Shown: positions 8,824 through 49,556 of the stretch, in pieces
Numbering within the stretch: the stretch's first letter is position 1
Layout of the letters: each line of letters starts with the position of its first letter
Source: an uncultured Croceitalea sp.
GTDB taxonomy: Bacteria; Bacteroidota; Bacteroidia; Flavobacteriales; Flavobacteriaceae
DNA length: 64,000 nucleotides
Assembly (NCBI RefSeq): GCF_947499565.1
Contig: NZ_CANMOV010000006.1
Reading direction: 5' to 3' (one strand)
Notes under the pieces: model-generated
Database searches by the model: none
Told to the model about the DNA's origin: nothing
The model's input: only the letters and a program-made list of their open reading frames with translations
Translations under genes and position numbers: made by a program

Positions 8824-9584
8824 TCCTACTAGCCCTAAAACTTGTTCTGGCACACTTCCTTGGCGATTTTGTTTTTCAACCTGCAAAATGGGTAGCGCAC
8901 AAACTAAAGAAAAAAGGAAAATCCAAATACCTGTACTACCACATTGGGGTACATCTATTAGCTCTTATCGTTTTATTACAATTTAAATGGGGTATTATCG
9001 CCATAATCATAGTATCACACTACCTTATCGATTTAGGCAAATTAACCTTCACCAACAAAAAGAACCATCGTTGGCTTTTTACTTTGGACCAAATGCTACA
9101 TCTAGGGGTAATTGCAGCAGTAGTCTACTTTTATGAGCCCTTTTCCATAGACTCTAGTTCATTATTAACGCCTAAACTGCTTCTATTCTTTAGTATGCTT
9201 GCTTTTGTAACTTATGTCTCTGCCATTCTAATTAAAATGATGCTAGTTCCCTATATTAAGGAACTAGAAGACGACCAAGAAAAAGAAGCTAAACGTAAAA
9301 AGAAGCTTGGCGAATATGATGAGAACGAAGGCACTTCCCTTAAAAATGCCGGGCGTTATATTGGTATGTTGGAGCGTATTTTTGTCTTTGCCTTTATTCT
9401 TTTACACCAATGGGCAGCCATTGGATTGTTAATTACAGCAAAATCTGTATTCCGGTTTGGCGACCTCAATAAAGGAAAAAACAGAAAACTGACCGAGTAT
9501 GTGCTTATTGGCACTTTACTCAGTTTTGGCCTCGCTATTTTGGCAGGGCTTGCCTATAATTACCTTAGCACACATCTATCATGA
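8820..9584 (+). CDS. DUF3307 membrane protein
   Basis: His/Asp motifs AHFLGDF, HIGVH, SHYLID and DQMLH in TM helices; C-terminal AGRYIGMLER...AKSVFRF; ATGA overlap with the upstream gene. Confidence 0.82.
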   Translation: MILLALKLVLAHFLGDFVFQPAKWVAHKLKKKGKSKYLYYHIGVHLLALIVLLQFKWGIIAIIIVSHYLIDLGKLTFTNKKNHRWLFTLDQMLHLGVIAAVVYFYEPFSIDSSSLLTPKLLLFFSMLAFVTYVSAILIKMMLVPYIKELEDDQEKEAKRKKKLGEYDENEGTSLKNAGRYIGMLERIFVFAFILLHQWAAIGLLITAKSVFRFGDLNKGKNRKLTEYVLIGTLLSFGLAILAGLAYNYLSTHLS

Positions 9585-9997
9585 AAGACATTTTCAATAC
9601 CTATACCCCAGAAGGATTTGGTACCGTAAACACCTACTTATTTACAGAGGACCCGCAACATTTAATAGACTTCCTTAAAAAAGCATTTTACGCAGAAGAA
9701 ATTAACCGTTCCATACATCCAGAAAATGGTGACATAGGTAATTGTATCCTAAAAATTGGGGACAGCTGTTTTATGATTAGTCAGGCTAGAGGAATGTTTA
9801 TGGGTATGCGTACCGCCATGTATCTTTATGTAAACGATGTGGACACTTTGCAAGCGAATGCATTGGCACATGGTGCCGAAGAAGTATTTGCACCAGCAGA
9901 TATGGATTATGGTGACCGCCAAGGTGGGGTAAAAGACCCAGCAGGCAACTATTGGTGGATTTCTAAACGCTTGGAAGAAAAAGGGTATCATGAGTAG
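9581..9997 (+). CDS. VOC/glyoxalase (PhnB-like) protein
   Basis: Motifs LKIGDSCFMIS and YGDRQGGVKDPAGNYWWI. Confidence 0.85.
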   Translation: MKDIFNTYTPEGFGTVNTYLFTEDPQHLIDFLKKAFYAEEINRSIHPENGDIGNCILKIGDSCFMISQARGMFMGMRTAMYLYVNDVDTLQANALAHGAEEVFAPADMDYGDRQGGVKDPAGNYWWISKRLEEKGYHE

Positions 9998-11033
9998 ACG
10001 TAATCTGCGCATTCTTAGGTTTTATATTGTTGGATGGACTCTCGCCATGTTATTTTTAGCTATTGTTCGCGGTGTAGGTACGGAGGAATTGGGAGAACTC
10101 CAATTCGATTTTAAATCTAGTATACTTATTAGTATAACTCTGGGACCAATCTTCGGGGTGATTTCAGGTTTCGCATCTATTTGGGTAGAGAAAAACCTCT
10201 ATCGAAAATTGACTATTGGCAGACTGCTAATCTACAGAACGCTATATGCCATTGGCTTTATCCTCTTTATGATTATCATAGCTTATTCGGTATATCAAGT
10301 GTATTTTGGGACAGAAATTAGCATTATCACCTTTGCGATTGACGATGGCAGTGGTGCTATTTACCTCTACATTTTGGCTACAGATTTTTTTATGACCATA
10401 CTAAGACAAGTAAGTCTTATGCTAGGTGAAGGGAATCTTACTAAAATGATTCGTGGAAAGTTTTATACACCCCGTGAAGAAAGTCGCATTTTCATGTTCA
10501 TAGATCTGCAGGCTTCTACTGCGCTAGCTGAACGTTTAGGACACGTAAAATACAGCATGCTTATACAGGATTGTTTTAATGATTTAGGGATTGCCGTAGA
10601 ACAAAATAATGCGGAAATCTATCAGTATGTTGGGGACGAAGCCGTATTAACATGGTCGCTCAAAGAAGGATTAATTAAACAAAATTCCCTAAAAGCTTAT
10701 TTTAATTTTTCAGAATTACTAAAAAAGAAAAGCGCGTATTATCAAAAAAAATATGATTGTCAGCCCTTTTTTAAAGCAGGATTGCATTCTGGAATAGTAA
10801 CAGTGACCGAAGTAGGCAAATACAAAAAGGAGATTGCTTACCATGGCGATACTATAAATACAGCGGCTCGTATCCAGGGACAATGCAATGCGCTTAATGC
10901 GCAATTATTAATTTCAGAAGCGCTCAAAAACCAATTACCTACAACTGATTTTGTTTTTATGGAAAAAGGAGAGGTCCCGTTAAAAGGCAAAAAGAAAGAT
11001 ATTATCATTTATGCTGTTTCCAGAAAACAATAA
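9990..11033 (+). CDS. Membrane-anchored class III nucleotidyl cyclase
   Basis: Four N-terminal TM helices; FMFIDLQAST, YQYVGDE, FKAGLHSG and GDTINTAARIQ motifs. Confidence 0.9.
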   Translation: MSRRNLRILRFYIVGWTLAMLFLAIVRGVGTEELGELQFDFKSSILISITLGPIFGVISGFASIWVEKNLYRKLTIGRLLIYRTLYAIGFILFMIIIAYSVYQVYFGTEISIITFAIDDGSGAIYLYILATDFFMTILRQVSLMLGEGNLTKMIRGKFYTPREESRIFMFIDLQASTALAERLGHVKYSMLIQDCFNDLGIAVEQNNAEIYQYVGDEAVLTWSLKEGLIKQNSLKAYFNFSELLKKKSAYYQKKYDCQPFFKAGLHSGIVTVTEVGKYKKEIAYHGDTINTAARIQGQCNALNAQLLISEALKNQLPTTDFVFMEKGEVPLKGKKKDIIIYAVSRKQ

Positions 11034-41218: not shown

Positions 41219-42283
41219 TTAAGCTGTTTCTTTTTCTATTGCCACCATCCAGTTATGTGTATCTGAATATTCCCCTGAACGAATTCCATTTATTTTATCT
41301 AGTACTAACTGTCCTACTTTATTCCCTTTAGTCAGAGTAATAGTCTGGTTTTTATAACCTATTTCATTAATCATGGCGATACCGACAGCCGTTCCTGTGC
41401 CAAAAGCTTCCTCCAAAGTACCCTCTTTTGATGCTCTTAAAAGTTCGTTTATGGTAATTGGATTTTCGTTTACTTGATATCCTTCAGCTTTTAGCAATTC
41501 TATTACACTCTTTCTAGTAATGCCATCTAATATAGCACCGTCTAGGCTTGGGGTATAGAACGTTCCTTTTATCTTAAAAAAGATATTCATTGTTCCAACC
41601 TCTTGAATATAGTTGAAGTCTTTACCATCTAACCACAAAACCTGATTATACCCTTTTTCTTTGGCCAGTTCAGTAGGTCTAATGGCTGCTGCATAATTTC
41701 CTGCTGCTTTTGCCTCTCCTGTTCCCCCTTCAATTGCTCGTATGTATTTAGTCTCCGCATACAATCTTATAGGTTTAGAGAAGAAAGGTCCTGCAGGCGA
41801 GGCCATAATGATAAATTTGTATTTGGTAGAGGCGCGCATTCCAATAAAAGCCTCATCTGCATACATAAAAGGCCTAAGGTAAAGTGCACTTCCTTTTTGG
41901 GGTGGAATCCAGTTTTCTTCTAGCGCTACCAGTTTTTCTAAACCTTCTACAAACAAGTCTTCAGGAAATTCTGGCATCCCCATGCGCCTAGCACTAAAAT
42001 TTAAGCGCGCAGCATTTAATGTTGGTCTAAACAATAAAGGAGTCCCATTTATATGTTTAGTGGCTTTCATACCCTCAAAAATTGCCTGTCCATAATGCAA
42101 TGCCATTGCTGCTGGATGCGTAGGAATTAAAGCCAAAGGTTCTATTCTTGGATTTAACCATTCTCCATTTTCATAATCACAAATAAACATATGATCCGTA
42201 AATGTGGTCCCAAGAGGGATGTTGTTAAAATCCAACAAATCCACTTTAGATGTAGTGGTTTTAGTAATTGAAATATGCCTCAT
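41219..42283 (-). CDS. ilvE: Class IV (branched-chain/aromatic) amino-acid aminotransferase
   Basis: LHYGQAIFEGMKA, GEAKAAGNYA, EVGTMN, ILDGITR and EAFGTGTA motifs; 1-nt overlap with E2. Confidence 0.9.
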   Translation of the reverse strand: MRHISITKTTTSKVDLLDFNNIPLGTTFTDHMFICDYENGEWLNPRIEPLALIPTHPAAMALHYGQAIFEGMKATKHINGTPLLFRPTLNAARLNFSARRMGMPEFPEDLFVEGLEKLVALEENWIPPQKGSALYLRPFMYADEAFIGMRASTKYKFIIMASPAGPFFSKPIRLYAETKYIRAIEGGTGEAKAAGNYAAAIRPTELAKEKGYNQVLWLDGKDFNYIQEVGTMNIFFKIKGTFYTPSLDGAILDGITRKSVIELLKAEGYQVNENPITINELLRASKEGTLEEAFGTGTAVGIAMINEIGYKNQTITLTKGNKVGQLVLDKINGIRSGEYSDTHNWMVAIEKETA

Positions 42284-43587
42284 TAAATTGTTCTATTAGT
42301 ATCAAACTTTTCTAAATAATCTCCCACTCTTCTTAAAAATGAACCCCCCAAATAACCATCCACAACCCTATGATCAAAAGAAAGCGATAAGTACATCATG
42401 CTACGGATAGCTATTTCGTCACCTTTTTCCGTGGTTAGTACTTCTGCTCTTTTTTTGATGATGCCCAGTGCAAGTATGGCAACTTCAGGTTGATTAATAA
42501 TAGGTGTCCCCATTAAACTCCCAAAAGTGCCTACGTTAGAAATGGTAAAAGTGCTTCCCTTAATATCATCTCCACTTAATGTATTCTCCCTGGCTTTTGC
42601 TGCCAGTTTATTTACCTCTGAAGCAAGTTCTTTAAGGTTCTTTTGATTTGCATTTTTTACAACAGGAACAATTAGATTGCCACTTGGTAAAGCTGTAGCC
42701 ATACCAATGTTAATGTCTTCTTTAACAATGATGTTGTTCCCATCAACAGAAACATTAATCATGGGAAAATCCTTAACTGCCTTTGAAACAGCTTCTACAA
42801 ATAATGGTGTAAAGGTTAATCGTTCTCCATATTTTTCCTGGAACTTTTCCTTATTGTCATTTCTCCAATTTACCATATCCGTAAGGTCTGCTTCTACATA
42901 TGCTGTCACATGCGGCGATGTGTGTTTGGAATACACCATATGGTCCGCAATCATTTGGCGCATTCGGTCCATCTCAACAATCTTACCAGTGCCTTTATCT
43001 AGATTTAGTTGCGGAATTCTGTATGCCGTTGGATCAGGTTCTGCCACTGGTTGTACAAATTGGTATGGCCTGCCTTCATTAATATAGTTGAATAAATCGC
43101 TCTTCTTAAGACGGCCATCAGCTCCCGTAGCCGGGATTCTAGCCAACTCTTCATAACTAACATGTTGTTCTTTGGCAATTCCGACAATTAAAGGAGAGTA
43201 AAATGTATTATTTCGTATCGCATTGGAAGTTGCAACAGACTTTACTTTCTTAGTTTTTAATCTTTGTTTAGATGTTGTCTCTTTTGAAATCTGAGCATCG
43301 GATGTTTTCTCCTCTTTAGCAACGCTGCTGCCCTCCGCAACTTCTCCATCTAGTTCTAAAATAGCAATGACCTCTCCTACTTGTACTACATCTTTTGGAT
43401 TAAACAAGGTTTTAACCAAAACACCGGAGGCATTAGCAGGCACTTCGTTATCAACTTTATCGGTAGCAACTTCCAAAAGAATATCACCTTCTTTAAAAGA
43501 ATCACCTTCTTTAACAATCCAATCAATGATTGTTCCCTCCGTAATGCTTTCGCCCATTCTGGGCATTTTTAGTTCCAGCTTCGACAT
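42283..43587 (-). CDS. 2-oxoacid dehydrogenase E2 (dihydrolipoamide acyltransferase)
   Basis: Lipoyl motif EVATDKVDNEV; E3-binding TGADGRLKKSD; catalytic FDHRVVDG. Confidence 0.95.
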   Translation of the reverse strand: MSKLELKMPRMGESITEGTIIDWIVKEGDSFKEGDILLEVATDKVDNEVPANASGVLVKTLFNPKDVVQVGEVIAILELDGEVAEGSSVAKEEKTSDAQISKETTSKQRLKTKKVKSVATSNAIRNNTFYSPLIVGIAKEQHVSYEELARIPATGADGRLKKSDLFNYINEGRPYQFVQPVAEPDPTAYRIPQLNLDKGTGKIVEMDRMRQMIADHMVYSKHTSPHVTAYVEADLTDMVNWRNDNKEKFQEKYGERLTFTPLFVEAVSKAVKDFPMINVSVDGNNIIVKEDINIGMATALPSGNLIVPVVKNANQKNLKELASEVNKLAAKARENTLSGDDIKGSTFTISNVGTFGSLMGTPIINQPEVAILALGIIKKRAEVLTTEKGDEIAIRSMMYLSLSFDHRVVDGYLGGSFLRRVGDYLEKFDTNRTI

Positions 43588-43592
43588 TAGTT

Positions 43593-43610
43593 AACTAGCG
43601 TTTGTTAGTT
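43593..43610. promoter_or_regulatory. PaaR-like operator copy 2, upstream of E2-aminotransferase-E1
   Basis: AACTAGCGTTTGTTAGTT, 16/18 identical to the palindrome at 55685; 5 nt from the E2 start codon. Confidence 0.65.
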
Positions 43611-43647
43611 TATACATTGTATCTTCTTTTTTAAAGAATATCTCGTC

Positions 43648-44244
43648 TTACTTATTCATGAAATCCCTAAGGGTATCATACAAAGCTTCTTGCTTTTTTC
43701 TATCTTCCGGAACTTCTCTCAGAGGTTCTACTGGTTTTAGACTCTCGTGACATTCTGCCGGCAACTTCTGATACAATTGCGTTCCTTTAGTTTTCCAGGC
43801 AATCATATCATCGCTAACTTGTTTTATTACTTTAGCGGGATTCCCAACAACCAAACTACGTTTAGGTATTTTAGTTCCTGCTTTTACGAAAGCCATTGCT
43901 CCTACGATACTCTCATCGCTAATTTCTGCATCATCCATAATTACAGTATTCATCCCCACCAATACATTACGTCCAATATTGGCGCCATGAATAATAGCTC
44001 CATGACCTATATGCGCACTTTCTTTTAAGGTTATAGATTTTCCAGGAAACATATGTACCGTGCAATTTTCTTGTACATTAACGCCATCCTCTAAAACAAT
44101 CTGTCCCCAATCTCCCCTTATAGCAGCTCCTGGTCCTATATAACAGTCTTTTCCAATGATTACATTACCGGTTATAGCAGCCAAAGGATGCACAAAACTA
44201 CTTTCATGTATTACAGGTATGTATCCTTTAAAACTGTATACCAT
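43648..44244 (-). CDS. paaY: PaaY gamma-carbonic-anhydrase-like hexapeptide protein
   Basis: IRGDWG, NVQENCTVH and IGHGAIIHG motifs; paa cluster context. Confidence 0.85.
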   Translation of the reverse strand: MVYSFKGYIPVIHESSFVHPLAAITGNVIIGKDCYIGPGAAIRGDWGQIVLEDGVNVQENCTVHMFPGKSITLKESAHIGHGAIIHGANIGRNVLVGMNTVIMDDAEISDESIVGAMAFVKAGTKIPKRSLVVGNPAKVIKQVSDDMIAWKTKGTQLYQKLPAECHESLKPVEPLREVPEDRKKQEALYDTLRDFMNK

Positions 44245-44246
44245 TA

Positions 44247-44999
44247 CTAATTATATCTTTTCAAGGTTTCTTTGGTAAAATCACTTAAAACTAAGGTTCC
44301 ACTAATGACAGCACGTTCCATAAGTAAAGTATCCCAATCCTCTGTACCTTTCCAAAACATCGCTTTCATTTTAGACATTGCTTCTGGATTGTAGGTACAT
44401 AAGTTTTTAGCAAATGCCAATACCTCTTTATCTAAAGTTGCTGTATCCTCAAAAACTTTAGTAAAAAGCCCCTTATCTCTTGCCCATTCTGCTGGGTAAA
44501 ATGAGTTGGCATCAATAGCAATTTGAGACATTCCACTTAGTCCCAGTTTCCTTTCAACCGCTGGCCCTACTACAAAGGGGCCAATACCAATATTTAACTC
44601 GCTCAATTTTATAGCAGCAAATTTTGTTGCCATGCAATAATCTGTTGCAGAGGCTAATCCAACACCACCACCAACAGTTTTTCCTTGCACTCTACCGATA
44701 ATAAATTTTGGACACTTTCGCATCGCATTAATAACATTAGCAAAGCCTGAAAAAAAGGTTTTACCTGTTTCTGCATCATTAATCGCAACAAGTTCTTTAA
44801 AGCTGGCTCCTGCGCAAAAAGTCCTGTCTCCGCCGCTTTTTAAAACGATTACTTTTATAGCATCATCTTTTCCAGCATTCGTAATTGTTTGCGCTAATTC
44901 TGCCAGAATATCCCCTGGAAGTGAATTATGGGCTGGATGAAAAAATTCTATAAATCCTATCTGTTCCTCAACAGTTAATGTAACATAAGGTGCTGTCAT
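44247..44999 (-). CDS. Enoyl-CoA hydratase/isomerase (possibly the PaaF-equivalent)
   Basis: FCAGASF and GGGVGLASATD crotonase motifs; ATG at 44999. Confidence 0.85.
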   Translation of the reverse strand: MTAPYVTLTVEEQIGFIEFFHPAHNSLPGDILAELAQTITNAGKDDAIKVIVLKSGGDRTFCAGASFKELVAINDAETGKTFFSGFANVINAMRKCPKFIIGRVQGKTVGGGVGLASATDYCMATKFAAIKLSELNIGIGPFVVGPAVERKLGLSGMSQIAIDANSFYPAEWARDKGLFTKVFEDTATLDKEVLAFAKNLCTYNPEAMSKMKAMFWKGTEDWDTLLMERAVISGTLVLSDFTKETLKRYN

Positions 45000-45008
45000 C
45001 ACGCTTTT

Positions 45009-45032
45009 GTGTTCCCGAGTAATCGGGAATCT
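45009..45032 (+). repeat. Family F REP hairpin downstream of GIY-YIG-2
   Basis: GTG-TTCCCGA-gtaa-TCGGGAA-TCT. Confidence 0.8.
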
Positions 45033-45044
45033 ATTTTAAGATTA

Positions 45045-45332
45045 TTATTTCAAAATTTCATATAAATCCGTCCAATCGGGATTCGTTTTTTCTATTAATT
45101 CAATTTTCCAAGCCCTGTTCCATTTCTTCATTTGTTTCTCTTTCAATCTAGCTTCTCCTTCTGTTTTAAATTGTTCAAAGTAAACTACTTTATCCAAATT
45201 ATACCTCGCCGAGAATGTTGTTGGATGAGCTTTAGTTTTATGTTGATATATTCTTGTTTTTAATCTTTTAGTTTTTCCGATATATAGAACACCCCGCTTT
45301 TTATTTGTAATTATGTAAACATAGTGTTTCAA
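45045..45332 (-). CDS. Small stand-alone GIY-YIG nuclease (GIY-YIG_unchar_3-like), copy 2
   Basis: YVY...LYIGKT..LKTRIYQH, KEKQMKKWNRAWKIELIEKTNPDW; TTG start; inserted inside the paa cluster. Confidence 0.92.
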   Translation of the reverse strand: MKHYVYIITNKKRGVLYIGKTKRLKTRIYQHKTKAHPTTFSARYNLDKVVYFEQFKTEGEARLKEKQMKKWNRAWKIELIEKTNPDWTDLYEILK

Positions 45333-45354
45333 AATTTCAATTCTTATTTTAAAC

Positions 45355-45378
45355 GGCTCCCGATGACTCGGGAGTCAC
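45355..45378 (-). repeat. Family F REP hairpin upstream of GIY-YIG-2, inverted relative to 45009
   Basis: The minus strand reads GTGA-CTCCCGA-gtca-TCGGGAG-CC. Confidence 0.8.
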
Positions 45379-45396
45379 CTTGAACAATTCAGTTTG

Positions 45397-47895
45397 TTAT
45401 AGCAAATTGAATTGTTCAAAATGATGATTTAAATGCTTTCGCTCCAATAGCGCCCATTCATATCTATTTAAGAATCCAAAGACAGGGTTTTTTGTTCTTT
45501 CTTCTGGATTTGCATTAAAAAATTCTAAATATTGCTCTCTAGCCTCTAACATCCTTTCTTTTGCTATAGTCAAATTCTCATGCTTGGGGTTATTTATATC
45601 TGATTTTTCAGCTAGGGGAAAATCATAATCATGCGGCATCTTATCATAATTATATAAGGTAGCGTGCACTTTTTCTATAATTTTCTCTGGTGTAGAAATT
45701 TTAAAATCTTGAATTTCTCCTGAAGCAATTCGATAACTATATTCCAAGTGTTCTACCAAGCATTGCGCACTAATATTCCCCCATGTAGGTGTAGTTTTTT
45801 CATCAAGTTTAGCAAAACACTCCTTAATTTTAGTTTCGGTCATTTCTACAAAAGTTTCTTGTTTCTTTTGAACCATGGTGAGGATTGTTGCAATAGCAAC
45901 CAACTCATCTTCTGTGTCAAAAACCTCAACAAACCATTTTACGATACCGCTTGGATGTTCTGCTCCCGCAACATCTCGATCTACTTTTTGCTTACAGGTT
46001 AGTCTTACATAAATGGTATCGTTATGGTAAAGCGGTCTTAGGAAACGACACTCTTCTAAGCCATAGTTTGCAGCAACCGGTCCTTTATTTGGATAAACAA
46101 ATAATCCCGCCGCAGCTGAAATGATAAAATATCCATGCGCGGTACGCTTTTCAAATATGCTCCCATCTAAGGACGTTATATCGGTATGAGCATAAAAATG
46201 GTCCCATGTAACATTTGCAAAGTTGATGATGTCGGTATCGGTCAACGTACGTTTATGTGTTTTTAAGGACATTCCTGCTTCAATATCTTCCCAATGATAT
46301 TTGAACGGGTGTTGTGCCGCTTCTTTATATTTTGCATTGGCCTGATATATTCCGGTAATCTCCGTTAAAGTTGTTGGGGTTCCTTGGATAGCTGTACGTT
46401 GCAAATAATGTTTTATACCACGCATACCACCCATTTCTTCTCCTCCTCCTGCTCTACCTGGGCCTCCATGGACTAGATTAGGCAATGGAGAACCATGTCC
46501 TGTACTTTCCTTGGCGTTTTCTCTATTTAAAACCAAAATACGGCCATGATGACTTGCTGCATTTACTACATATTCCTTAGCAATCTTATCATCAAAAGTG
46601 GTGATTGACGACACTAAAGAACCTTTACCCATTTGTGCCAAAGTAATAGCCTCACCCAAATTCTTATAAGGCATAATGGTACTAACAGGACCAAAAGCTT
46701 CACGCTCGTGGATAATTGTATTCTGAAAAGGATGGTCCGCCCGTAATAAAATTGGGCTAATAAATGCTCCTTTTTTAGCGTCTGCTCCAATAGTTTCAAT
46801 CTTATCTAAATCACCGTAAACTATTTCTGCTTCTTTTGCTAAATCGTTTACAGAATCTCGTACCGCCTGTACCTGTTGTTGACTTACCAAAGAACCCATT
46901 CTTACTTCTTTTAATCTTGGATCTCCAATAGTTACTTTGTCCAATGCCTTTCCAAGAGCAATCTGCACATCCTCAACAAGATTTTCAGGAACTATAATTC
47001 GTCTTATAGCTGTACATTTTTGTCCGGCTTTCACCGTCATCTCCTTTCGCACTTCCTTTACGAACAAATCAAATTCGGGAGTCCCAGGAACTGCATCTTG
47101 TCCTAAAATAGAAGCATTTAAAGAATCTGCTTCCATAGTAAAAGGCACTGCTTCTTCAATCAAACGCGGATGTGCTTTTAACAAACGTCCTGTTGTTGCA
47201 GAACCAGTAAATGTTACCACATCTTGCGATGTTACCGTATCGAGTATCGTTTTAACCGTTCCATTAATAATCTGTAAAGCACCTTCTGGTAAAATGCCTG
47301 AATTTATTATTTCTCTAGCTACTGCTTCTGCTAAATACGAAGAAGACGGTGCAGGTAACACCACAGCTGGCATTCCTGCCATCCAATTGACAGCACATTT
47401 CTCTAACATACCCCAAACAGGAAAGTTAAAGGCGTTAATATGGACAGCTACTCCTTTTTTAGGTACCATAATGTGATGTGCCATAAATCTGCCTCCCCTA
47501 GATAAATCTATAGGGTCTCCTTCCACATGAAACGGTTGATTTGGAAACAGCTTACGCAAAGATGCATTGGCAAAAAGATTACCAAAACCACCTTCTATAT
47601 CAATCCAACTATCTACTCTGGTAGCTCCAGTCCTGTAACTTAAGTCATAAAATGCTTCCTTTCTTTTATTTAAGTAAAGTGCTAGTTTCTTAAGCATATT
47701 ACCTCTTTCTTGGAAAGTCATTTTGCGAAGAACAGCTCCTCCTTTATTTCTTCCATATTCTAAGGTTTCCGGAATATCTAAACCTTCAATAGCGATACTG
47801 GTAAAAGCTTCTCCTGTTACGGCATCAAGAACTGGTGTTCCTTCTTCTTTACCTTCTACCCATTGCCCTTTTATATAATGTGGTACTTTTTTCAT
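45397..47895 (-). CDS. paaZ: PaaZ (ALDH plus MaoC hydratase) with an extra C-terminal DinB/DUF1569-like domain
   Basis: [30 protein letters not shown] and RTAHGYF motifs; extension [13 protein letters not shown]...HLNHHFEQF; ATG 47895. Confidence 0.93.
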
Positions 47896-47897
47896 AA

Positions 47898-49103
47898 TCA
47901 CACTCTTTCTATAATCGCAGCATAGCCTTGTCCTACACCTATGCACATTGTAACTAAAGCGTACTTTTTTTGTTGTTCATGTAATTCCAAAGCGGCGGAA
48001 TATGCAATTCTAGCACCCGTTACACCTAAAGGATGACCTATAGCTACAGAACCGCCATTTGGATTCAATCTCGGGTCATTATCCGCCAATCCCCATGCCC
48101 GAGTACAAGCCAATGCTTGGGCAGCAAATGCTTCGTTCAATTCTATGACATCCATATCTTCCATGGTCAATCCAGCTTTTGCCAATGCCTTATTAGAGGC
48201 TTCAACAGGACCAATACCCATTATCCTTGGTTCCACACCTACCACTGCAGAACTTACTATTCTTGCCAAGGGTTTAAGATTGTATTTTTTAATGGCATCT
48301 TCAGATGCTATAATGGTTGCCGCAGCGCCATCATTTAATCCAGAAGAATTTCCTGCAGTTACACTACCTCCTTCTTTTTTAAATGCTGGACGCAGTTTTG
48401 CTAAAATCGCTTTTGTTGTTGTTGGTTTTACAAATTCATCTTTAGAAAATAGGATAGGATCTTTTTTACGCTGTGGAATTTCAACAGTGACAATCTCCTT
48501 AGCCAAACGCCCATTTTCTTGAGCTTTAGTAGCTTTCATTTGACTCCAATATGCAAATGCGTCTTGGTCTTCTCGAGAGATGTTATATTTTTCTACTAAA
48601 TTTTCGGCAGTATTTCCCATACCGTCTGTTCCGTAGAGTTTTTGCATTTTAGGGTTGATAAAACGCCATCCAAAGGTAGAATCGTACATTTTGGAATCTC
48701 CACCAAATCCCGTAGATGGTTTTGCAATAACATAAGGGCCTCTAGTCATATTCTCTACTCCACCGGCTATAAAAACATCTCCGTCACCGGCCTTAATAGC
48801 TCGGTTTGCATGAATCATAGCAGATAAGCCCGAACTGCATAATCGGTTCACAGTTTCTCCAGGAACTGTAAAGGGTAATCCAGCTAAAAGTGATGCCATA
48901 CGCCCTACATTGCGGTTATCTTCACCTGCCTGGTTTGCGCAACCCATAATTACATCATCATAAGCTTCTTTAGGAATATTTGGATTACGAGCTACTACCT
49001 CTTTAATTACCAATGCTCCCAAATCATCCGTTCTTACAGCAGACAAGGTTCCTTTATAGTTGCCTATTGGTGTTCTAATACCGTCTATTATATATGCTTC
49101 CAT
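47898..49103 (-). CDS. pcaF: 3-oxoadipyl-CoA / 3-oxo-5,6-dehydrosuberyl-CoA thiolase (PcaF/PaaJ)
   Basis: NRLCSSG, GNSSGLNDGA, ELNEAFA, AIGHPLG and CIGVGQG motifs. Confidence 0.92.
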   Translation of the reverse strand: MEAYIIDGIRTPIGNYKGTLSAVRTDDLGALVIKEVVARNPNIPKEAYDDVIMGCANQAGEDNRNVGRMASLLAGLPFTVPGETVNRLCSSGLSAMIHANRAIKAGDGDVFIAGGVENMTRGPYVIAKPSTGFGGDSKMYDSTFGWRFINPKMQKLYGTDGMGNTAENLVEKYNISREDQDAFAYWSQMKATKAQENGRLAKEIVTVEIPQRKKDPILFSKDEFVKPTTTKAILAKLRPAFKKEGGSVTAGNSSGLNDGAAATIIASEDAIKKYNLKPLARIVSSAVVGVEPRIMGIGPVEASNKALAKAGLTMEDMDVIELNEAFAAQALACTRAWGLADNDPRLNPNGGSVAIGHPLGVTGARIAYSAALELHEQQKKYALVTMCIGVGQGYAAIIERV

Positions 49104-49184: not shown

Positions 49185-49556
49185 TTATTTTTCGATTCTT
49201 TTATTTGTTGTTTTAATACTTGAGGTGAAAATAGCGACCAGCTCATTACATTCTTTAATGATTAATTCAAAAACCTCTTTATTCTCTACTAAATTTGATT
49301 TTTCAAGAATTTGTAAATTAACTTGTGACTCTCGCAATTCTTTTAAACATATTTTCATTTTATGAATAAAATCTCTTTTTGATTCAGCGCCTTGGGCTTC
49401 TCCATAATTTAGAGCAGATGAAGTTACAGAACGAATTAATTGTTTTATTAAGTGCTCTGTTGCAAAGCCTTTCTTCAAAATAGAAACATTGGAAATAATT
49501 AATGCCGAAAACACTACTAATCTCTCTTGCAGATTATATTTGGAATTACTTTTCAA
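49185..49556 (-). CDS. Four-helix-bundle protein (23S rRNA IVP / TIGR02436-like)
   Basis: QLIRSVTSSALNYGEAQGAESKRDFIHKMKICLKELRES signature. Confidence 0.9.
   Translation of the reverse strand: MKSNSKYNLQERLVVFSALIISNVSILKKGFATEHLIKQLIRSVTSSALNYGEAQGAESKRDFIHKMKICLKELRESQVNLQILEKSNLVENKEVFELIIKECNELVAIFTSSIKTTNKRIEK

Follow-up and report, generated by a model that had tools for sequence, protein, structure and literature searches.

The window analyzed here is a stretch of 64,000 nucleotides from the genome G000 (3.89 Mb, 35% G+C; C6:32817-96816), and it contains a phenylacetate (paa) operon whose genes, from 41219 to 49103, are all encoded on the minus strand. The genome encodes T9SS sorting domains, which 14 control genomes all lack, and is on that ground taken as a Bacteroidota genome, probably of a flavobacterium. 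Within this operon, paaZ (aldehyde dehydrogenase plus MaoC) ends at 45397 and the enoyl-CoA hydratase gene starts at 44999. The interval between them is filled by a small predicted nuclease gene and a set of inverted-repeat structures, which are given here from paaZ toward the hydratase gene.

45403..45424, minus strand: left arm of a palindrome; the last 6-7 codons of paaZ, coding
45397..45402, minus strand: loop of the palindrome; contains the paaZ stop codon TAA (45397-45399)
45375..45396, minus strand: right palindrome arm; repeats the paaZ 3' end in inverted form, is non-coding, and starts the inserted block
45000..45396, minus strand: the whole inserted block, relative to the tight paaZ/hydratase junction of relatives
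45355..45378, minus strand: SRM-L, left Ssn-related hairpin; sense-strand reading GTGA / CTCCCGA-GTCA-TCGGGAG / CC
45333..45354, minus strand: leader of 22 nt from SRM-L to the TTG; too short for an obvious promoter of its own
45045..45332, minus strand: ssn-like gene; TTG start, 95 aa, predicted single-domain GIY-YIG nuclease
45009..45032, plus strand: SRM-R, right Ssn-related hairpin; antisense-strand reading GTG / TTCCCGA-GTAA-TCGGGAA / TCT
45000..45011, plus strand: weak mini-hairpin, CAC..GTG with a 3-bp stem in G000, from SRM-R to the hydratase ATG
44247..44999, minus strand: enoyl-CoA hydratase gene, the downstream flank; its first ~35 nt lie within the exchanged tract

The earlier note on this DNA had placed a 95-aa GIY-YIG gene between paaZ and the hydratase gene, and this is confirmed: the open reading frame at 45045..45332 on the minus strand matches the Pfam family GIY-YIG (PF01541) over residues 2-77 with E = 1.7e-16. 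A Pfam search revealed no second domain and no DNA-binding domain in the protein, which is not an HUH Y1 transposase and whose Pfam matches are solely to GIY-YIG-type families. NCBIfam contains no specific family for it and PDB no solved structure, and the structures of UvrC and UPF0213 show weak similarity. Two GIY-YIG paralogues occur elsewhere in G000, one at locus 1 (protein 39% identical) and the other as a domain within a longer frame. A 13-nt direct repeat (GAAATTTTGAAA plus one base) at 45048-45060 and 45327-45339 overlaps the start and the last codons of the ssn gene; it is absent from the orthologous cassettes and therefore probably reflects chance in AT-rich sequence.

SsnA of Neisseria meningitidis, of the Ssn family (CDD cd10448), is a 94-aa single-domain GIY-YIG enzyme that binds the NTS hairpin as single-stranded DNA and in no other form, cutting a few nucleotides to its 5' side (Chenal et al., Nat Commun 2025, PMC11893778). 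Its residues Y6, Y17, and E64, mutated in that study (PMC11893778) as catalytic residues, have counterparts in Y6, Y17, and E65 of the window protein, and these three are, along with R27, invariant among 17 orthologues. Genome contigs were scanned for the exact NTS motif as a proxy for SsnA homology. On 2 contigs from distant phyla (L194 and L193), small GIY-YIG ORFs with canonical NTS beside them share 46% and 43% identity with the window ORF (E = 1e-22 and 1e-19, respectively). An inverted NTS pair on another contig, L121, encloses no GIY-YIG ORF. Neither the N. lactamica nor the N. mucosa genome, both reached via the NTS scan, contains a homologue of the window protein, and the small GIY-YIG gene that they do have, which by reading looks UPF0213/YhbQ-like, is of a different type with no NTS next to it.

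The 2 hairpins that bracket the gene have 7-bp stems and read, as on the given strand, TTCCCGA-GTAA-TCGGGAA (45012-45029) and CTCCCGA-TGAC-TCGGGAG (45357-45374). A degenerate pattern describing them finds 2 matches versus 0.02 expected by chance. Their inverted orientation is evident from the loops (GTAA versus GTCA), from the GTG(A) on the 5' side, and from an alignment to 18 orthologous cassettes; both 3' sides face the ssn gene, as the earlier note had written, and one hairpin is readable on each strand. This orientation is found in all orthologues, with the right hairpin being degenerate in G019. The proposed likeness to dRS3-type repeats is real as far as the stem is concerned, TTCCCG..CGGGAA followed by TC as in dRS3/NTS hairpins, but it does not extend to the published SRM search motif: this degenerate motif, used as a regular expression, matches once in the whole G000 genome and not at all at this locus. 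It also has 0 matches in 113 related loci, near-NTS hairpins included; we therefore take the motif to be too narrow for these genomes and of no use in deciding the membership of these Bacteroidota hairpins. The window hairpins are without the GTC 5' element, which governs cleavage in N. meningitidis (PMC11893778). The idea that they belong to a repeat family did not survive, as a search of the 3.89 Mb genome with strict and relaxed patterns returned only the 2 local copies; a dispersed family in G000 is rejected, both copies being at the cassette. With a copy number of two, the genome offers no other obvious targets. A related hairpin pattern has 0-17 copies in 5 other genomes that carry this cassette.

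The paa cluster was compared in 7 genomes, and the junction between paaZ and the hydratase gene in 20 more. Relative to empty junctions, the insertion is ~397 bp long; in coordinate order, it begins right after the hydratase ATG and ends one base short of the paaZ stop. The genes overlap or are 0-20 nt apart in the congener G004 and in G022, G021, G283, G237, G150, G359, and G289, and these empty junctions are without a hairpin. Solo hairpins occupy the same spacer in other genomes. Three genomes (G048, G158, and G114), each a congener of a genome occupied by the clade of cassettes found in the window (clade A, delimited below), have in the same spacer an unrelated Ssn clade with different hairpins, and in G139 and G114 there are remnants of the clade-A palindrome without the clade-A gene. 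No target-site duplication was found at the block boundaries. The junction that received the cassette was once tight, and its genes were probably coupled in translation. The comparison proposed in the earlier note thus did find strains lacking the unit, such as the congener G004, and its description of a compact inserted unit stands on the empty and differently filled junctions of congeners and near relatives; its size of ~370 bp has to be corrected to ~397 bp (45000-45396).

Some junctions have a more elaborate content. On the G019 contig L062, a 1.5-kb gene with a lipoprotein-type signal peptide (9260-10816) lies between the clade-A cassette, here with the degenerate right hairpin, and the hydratase gene, indicating that an occupied junction took a further insertion. 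In G022, G004, and G017 (L061, L063, and L065), solo Ssn-type hairpins such as AGA-TTCCCAC-TTTT-GTGGGAA lie just upstream of start codons in several paa spacers, in the orientation of the cassette's right end.

The earlier note described 2 hairpins at the locus and missed a third structure, a palindrome at 45375-45424 with a 22-bp stem. This palindrome carries the paaZ stop codon in its loop and abuts SRM-L, its right arm overlapping the GTGA 5' flank of that hairpin, and a 12-bp core at 45408-45419 pairs perfectly with 45380-45391. The minus strand folds as 2 contiguous hairpins (dG = -21.8 kcal/mol, z = -7.9), which we refer to as the twin hairpin. A palindrome of 16-25 bp occurs in all 22 clade-A cassettes, and the right arm is missing from empty junctions. 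Detailed analysis of the 19 genome copies showed the stop codon within the loop or next to it and the palindrome directly against the left hairpin; 11 of these palindromes are perfect. In the 19-genome alignment, 98.5% of cells are paired, with compensatory changes at 17 of 25 pairs (89 cells). None of 500 shuffles paired as highly, and no slid register came close. Among the mismatches, read on the sense strand, there are 13 G.U (G.T) wobbles versus 2 A.C, so that it is on the sense strand that the structure matters, be it as mRNA or as the DNA that presents the left hairpin in readable form. Such structures are rare at other gene ends: in G000, a palindrome score of at least 10 is reached at 3 of 1,189 background gene ends and a score of at least 12 at none. 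To the right of SRM-R, a covarying mini-hairpin forms a weaker counterpart of the left palindrome in 7 of 18 copies, with 4-5 bp stems (CACGC/GCGTG, CACAC/GTGTG, CACAT/ATGTG, CGCT/AGCG) in 6 relatives besides G000.

Beside other Ssn clades, 1 of 87 gene ends has a palindrome that scores this high. This one, on the metagenome contig Ga0210057_1001644 (L255) at ~1120-1150, is a perfect 13-bp palindrome centered on the stop of a metK-like gene, 14 nt ahead of an NTS-type hairpin of a different Ssn clade. It may represent a second independent host-derived case, or it may be the metK-like gene's own terminator.

To establish how widely the cassette is distributed, the sample was extended to 401 genomes of the family from 302 genera, 207 of which have the orthologous hydratase gene. 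Homologues with at least 61% identity were found in 19 genomes, each of another genus, and all 19 lie between paaZ and the hydratase gene; 3 metagenome contigs with 64-76% identity have the gene in the same position. In a tree of 62 homologues, these copies form one clade (clade A), in which the weak TTG start is common, with a well-supported sister clade. The sister clade has the hairpin ATTCCTGC-GAAG-GCAGGAAT and occupies at least 5 other junctions (thiolase|paaZ, hydratase|paaY, paaY|E2, paaA|paaB, and non-paa sites), demonstrating that the family does change sites, while clade A has not. The mobility suggested by the earlier note is accordingly seen on an evolutionary scale and mainly in the sister clade; clade A is fixed at one position in 19 genera, and G000 has no other hairpin copies. 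The note had also argued for nuclease-repeat specificity from 2 nucleases with distinct repeats. This receives support from the 62 homologues, whose protein clades track different hairpin families, and from locus 1, where the repeats are composite and quite unlike the hairpins of the window cassette; the principle is not new, having been published in 2025 as Ssn/SRM (PMC11893778).

The nuclease gene is under purifying selection (dN/dS 0.135, versus 0.08 for the flanking genes), and 3 of the 19 orthologues have an internal stop and are pseudogenes. Cassettes are carried by 19 of the 207 sampled genomes with the orthologous hydratase gene, and their occupancy is scattered on the flank tree, forcing at least 10 changes. 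Three closest pairs differ in their junction allele (G418/G155, G342/G048, and G019/G289). In all 3 of them, the excess divergence of paaZ is limited to the last 12-24 nt; the first ~35 nt of the hydratase gene are also divergent in G418/G155 and G019/G289, and show no excess in G342/G048. Occupied alleles mostly end in FNLL or FDLL, most empty ones in FGLI, and the first 12 codons of the hydratase gene switch haplotype between alleles. Divergence confined to such short tracts is what allele exchange by homologous recombination between the conserved flanks would leave, and it does not point to transposition, of which the comparisons of junctions, alleles, and hairpin copies gave no evidence. 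In none of the genome pairs is the cassette markedly more similar than the flanking sequence. Being too short, the Ssn tree gives no resolution, Ssn and flank distances correlate with a Spearman coefficient of 0.47, and dS is saturated, a combination that fits either old vertical descent with losses or old lateral exchange. Read together, these patterns speak for a long stay at the junction and turnover by recombination, without signs of hopping in the manner of an insertion sequence. The cassette in G000 is a resident, not an actively spreading repeat family.

Further arrangements of such small units are found in other genomes and spacers. G146 (L088) has 3 Ssn units in a single paa cluster, one of clade B between paaZ and the hydratase gene and 2 of the sister clade, at hydratase|paaY and after paaY. 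In G021 (L004 / L066), a sister-clade Ssn unit at hydratase|paaY comes after a directly repeated copy of paaY codons 1-52 (87% identical) and before the full paaY, an arrangement that suggests homologous recombination at one end and an illegitimate join at the other. Distant GIY-YIG homologues in G014 (L018) and G028 (L021) lie between direct duplicates of tRNA-like 3' segments and were apparently inserted in or beside tRNA genes. In the window itself, the 487-bp spacer between paaI and the thiolase gene is filled by a 123-aa ORF (49185-49556, minus strand) that matches the family of 23S rRNA-intervening-sequence proteins (PF05635, E = 1.6e-12) and has short tandem 'acttttacatttca' repeats after it. 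Sequence judged by eye to resemble this spacer is also seen at paaB|paaC in G019 and at paaI|thiolase in G021; the PF05635 unit would be a second kind of small cassette colonizing paa junctions.

Taken as a whole, the block at 45000-45396 is probably an Ssn-type cassette, a nuclease gene between 2 cognate inverted hairpins. By analogy to SsnA, and with strand specificity and cut position taken over from 4 mostly proteobacterial Ssn homologues, the window nuclease would bind each hairpin only as single-stranded DNA, as exposed during replication, repair, or DNA uptake, and would nick a few nucleotides 5' of each hairpin, that is, at the outer edges of the cassette. On the left side, the same analogy would put the predicted nick within the right arm of the palindrome. 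Clade A has remained at this one junction while at least 19 genera diverged, its alleles probably being exchanged by homologous recombination in the conserved flanks and the twin hairpin being kept complementary on the sense strand. The most likely role of the twin hairpin, offered as a guess, is to stabilize or insulate the transcript upstream of it, with protection of the 3' end of that transcript, or to hide the predicted cut site in a duplex; another guess would make the palindrome a self-correcting fold-back scar. More specifically, the palindrome might be a mechanistic signature, in which a nick by Ssn lets the 3' end fold back on the end of the neighboring gene and prime a short inverted copy, the twin hairpin then serving as the working end of a cassette whose movement or defense depends on single-strand nicks and host repair. 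We regard this fold-back priming as rather unlikely. Were it true, Ssn cassettes would constitute a transposase-less class of mobile DNA.

The reading as an Ssn-type cassette has to be weighed against explanations that treat the hairpins quite differently. The gene could be a free-standing homing endonuclease gene similar to phage T4 Seg/Mob, which would cut the empty junction as double-stranded DNA and have the cassette and a short flank copied in by repair, leaving the hairpins as accessories. Much of the behavior of the locus would suit such a gene, including the strict site fidelity of clade A, the insertion between conserved genes, the short co-converted flanks (FNLL/FDLL versus FGLI ends and the 12-codon haplotype switch in the hydratase gene), and the unrelated second Ssn clade in the same spacer. 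The protein, however, is a bare 95-aa catalytic domain without a DNA-binding domain, and the 4 Ssn homologues tested, mostly proteobacterial, had no activity on double-stranded DNA (PMC11893778). A classical homing gene would have no need of hairpins, yet these covary and are retained in every copy, and the lack of any pair with a cassette much more similar than its flanks means that there is no sign of recent drive. We consider homing very unlikely. An ordinary small gene with simple terminators or chance palindromes at its sides has almost no chance of being the right description. The first hairpin (SRM-R) with its CTATTTT tail does look like a terminator on the plus strand, and the hairpins are unique to this locus in the genome, but the terminator-like reading is on the plus strand only, antisense to every gene within 8 kb. 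A T run follows neither hairpin on the sense strand, where they do not qualify as intrinsic terminators, and SRM-R lies inside the operon, 12 nt ahead of the hydratase start codon. The hairpins accompany the gene in 22 of 22 orthologous copies with compensatory changes, and just 0.02 matches are expected by chance.

A third alternative is that the cassette has become a domesticated part of the operon. The hairpins, chiefly the palindrome and SRM-L, would then act mainly in RNA by processing, stabilizing, or attenuating the paa transcript, and the nuclease would be retained because it serves the host, for instance by limiting recombination or transformation at the locus. Domestication was proposed for the Neisseria system by its discoverers (PMC11893778), and here the long residence under purifying selection, the excess of G.U over A.C mismatches on the sense strand, the lack of space for a promoter of its own, and the weak TTG starts common in the clade are all in keeping with it. 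Against this, only 19 of the 207 sampled genomes with the hydratase gene carry the cassette, close relatives lack it, and some copies are pseudogenes. The wobble bias cannot separate RNA from DNA, since SRM-L, as single-stranded DNA, is likewise readable on the sense strand. Domestication is therefore, in our judgment, unlikely, and the Ssn-type cassette residing at one junction is the interpretation that we carry forward.

The Ssn/SRM architecture as such is already published. The 2025 paper reported hairpins on both sides of the gene for 42% of homologues under its SRM motif; it likened NTS-ssnA-NTS to an insertion sequence and gave no evidence of mobility (PMC11893778). It established the action of Ssn in vitro and in Neisseria transformation and left open the mobility of the unit and its role in other bacteria (PMC11893778). 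What is new here is the off-motif, non-dispersed hairpins, the lineage confined to one junction in many genera, and the host-derived twin hairpin, points on which a literature search found no follow-up paper. A single junction that is tight in some genomes and occupied, replaced by another Ssn clade, or decayed in others provides a natural series, and the sister clade complements it across neighboring junctions of the same operon. The twin hairpin, as a sharply defined, strongly covarying, and host-derived structure, offers a direct experimental handle on the interplay of the nuclease with its own locus.

The closest comparison is to the Ssn/SRM system itself (PMC11893778). Both have a single-domain GIY-YIG protein of ~95 aa with the same catalytic Tyr/Tyr/Glu, both have the gene bracketed by 2 inverted hairpins of the TTCCCG..CGGGAA-TC type in the NTS-ssnA-NTS arrangement, and in both, protein lineages go with different hairpin families. 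The window hairpins differ in being off the published motif (GTG versus GTCA, and a shorter stem), and there are 2 copies in G000 compared to hundreds in Neisseria. Further differences are that clade A keeps to a single operon junction across at least 19 genera and that the left end of the window cassette bears an extra palindrome derived from the 3' end of the neighboring gene. Empty, replaced, and decayed sites document a turnover here that the paper had only hypothesized (PMC11893778).

REP/REPIN elements with their RAYT proteins (IS200/IS605-like Y1 HUH) also pair one small nuclease gene with inverted hairpins recognized as single-stranded DNA, as would by analogy be the case for the window cassette, and they have been the subject of the same debate on domestication versus selfishness. 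Unlike RAYT, the GIY-YIG fold hydrolyzes DNA and forms no covalent intermediate, and it can therefore carry out no strand transfer by itself; unlike REP/REPIN, there is no dispersed repeat population in G000, with its 2 copies in 3.89 Mb. Free-standing GIY-YIG homing genes (the T4 Seg family; I-TevI-like) have in common with the window gene the catalytic domain, a site between conserved genes, and short co-converted flanks. The window gene differs from them by having no DNA-binding domain, by its conserved hairpin ends, and by belonging to the Ssn family, for which no activity on double-stranded DNA is known. The twin hairpin also has a parallel in those enterobacterial REP sequences that lie beside stop codons and place a stable hairpin at or just after the stop of the upstream operon gene. 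At paaZ, unlike in those sequences, one arm of the hairpin is the gene's own coding end, and the structure occurs only together with an Ssn cassette.
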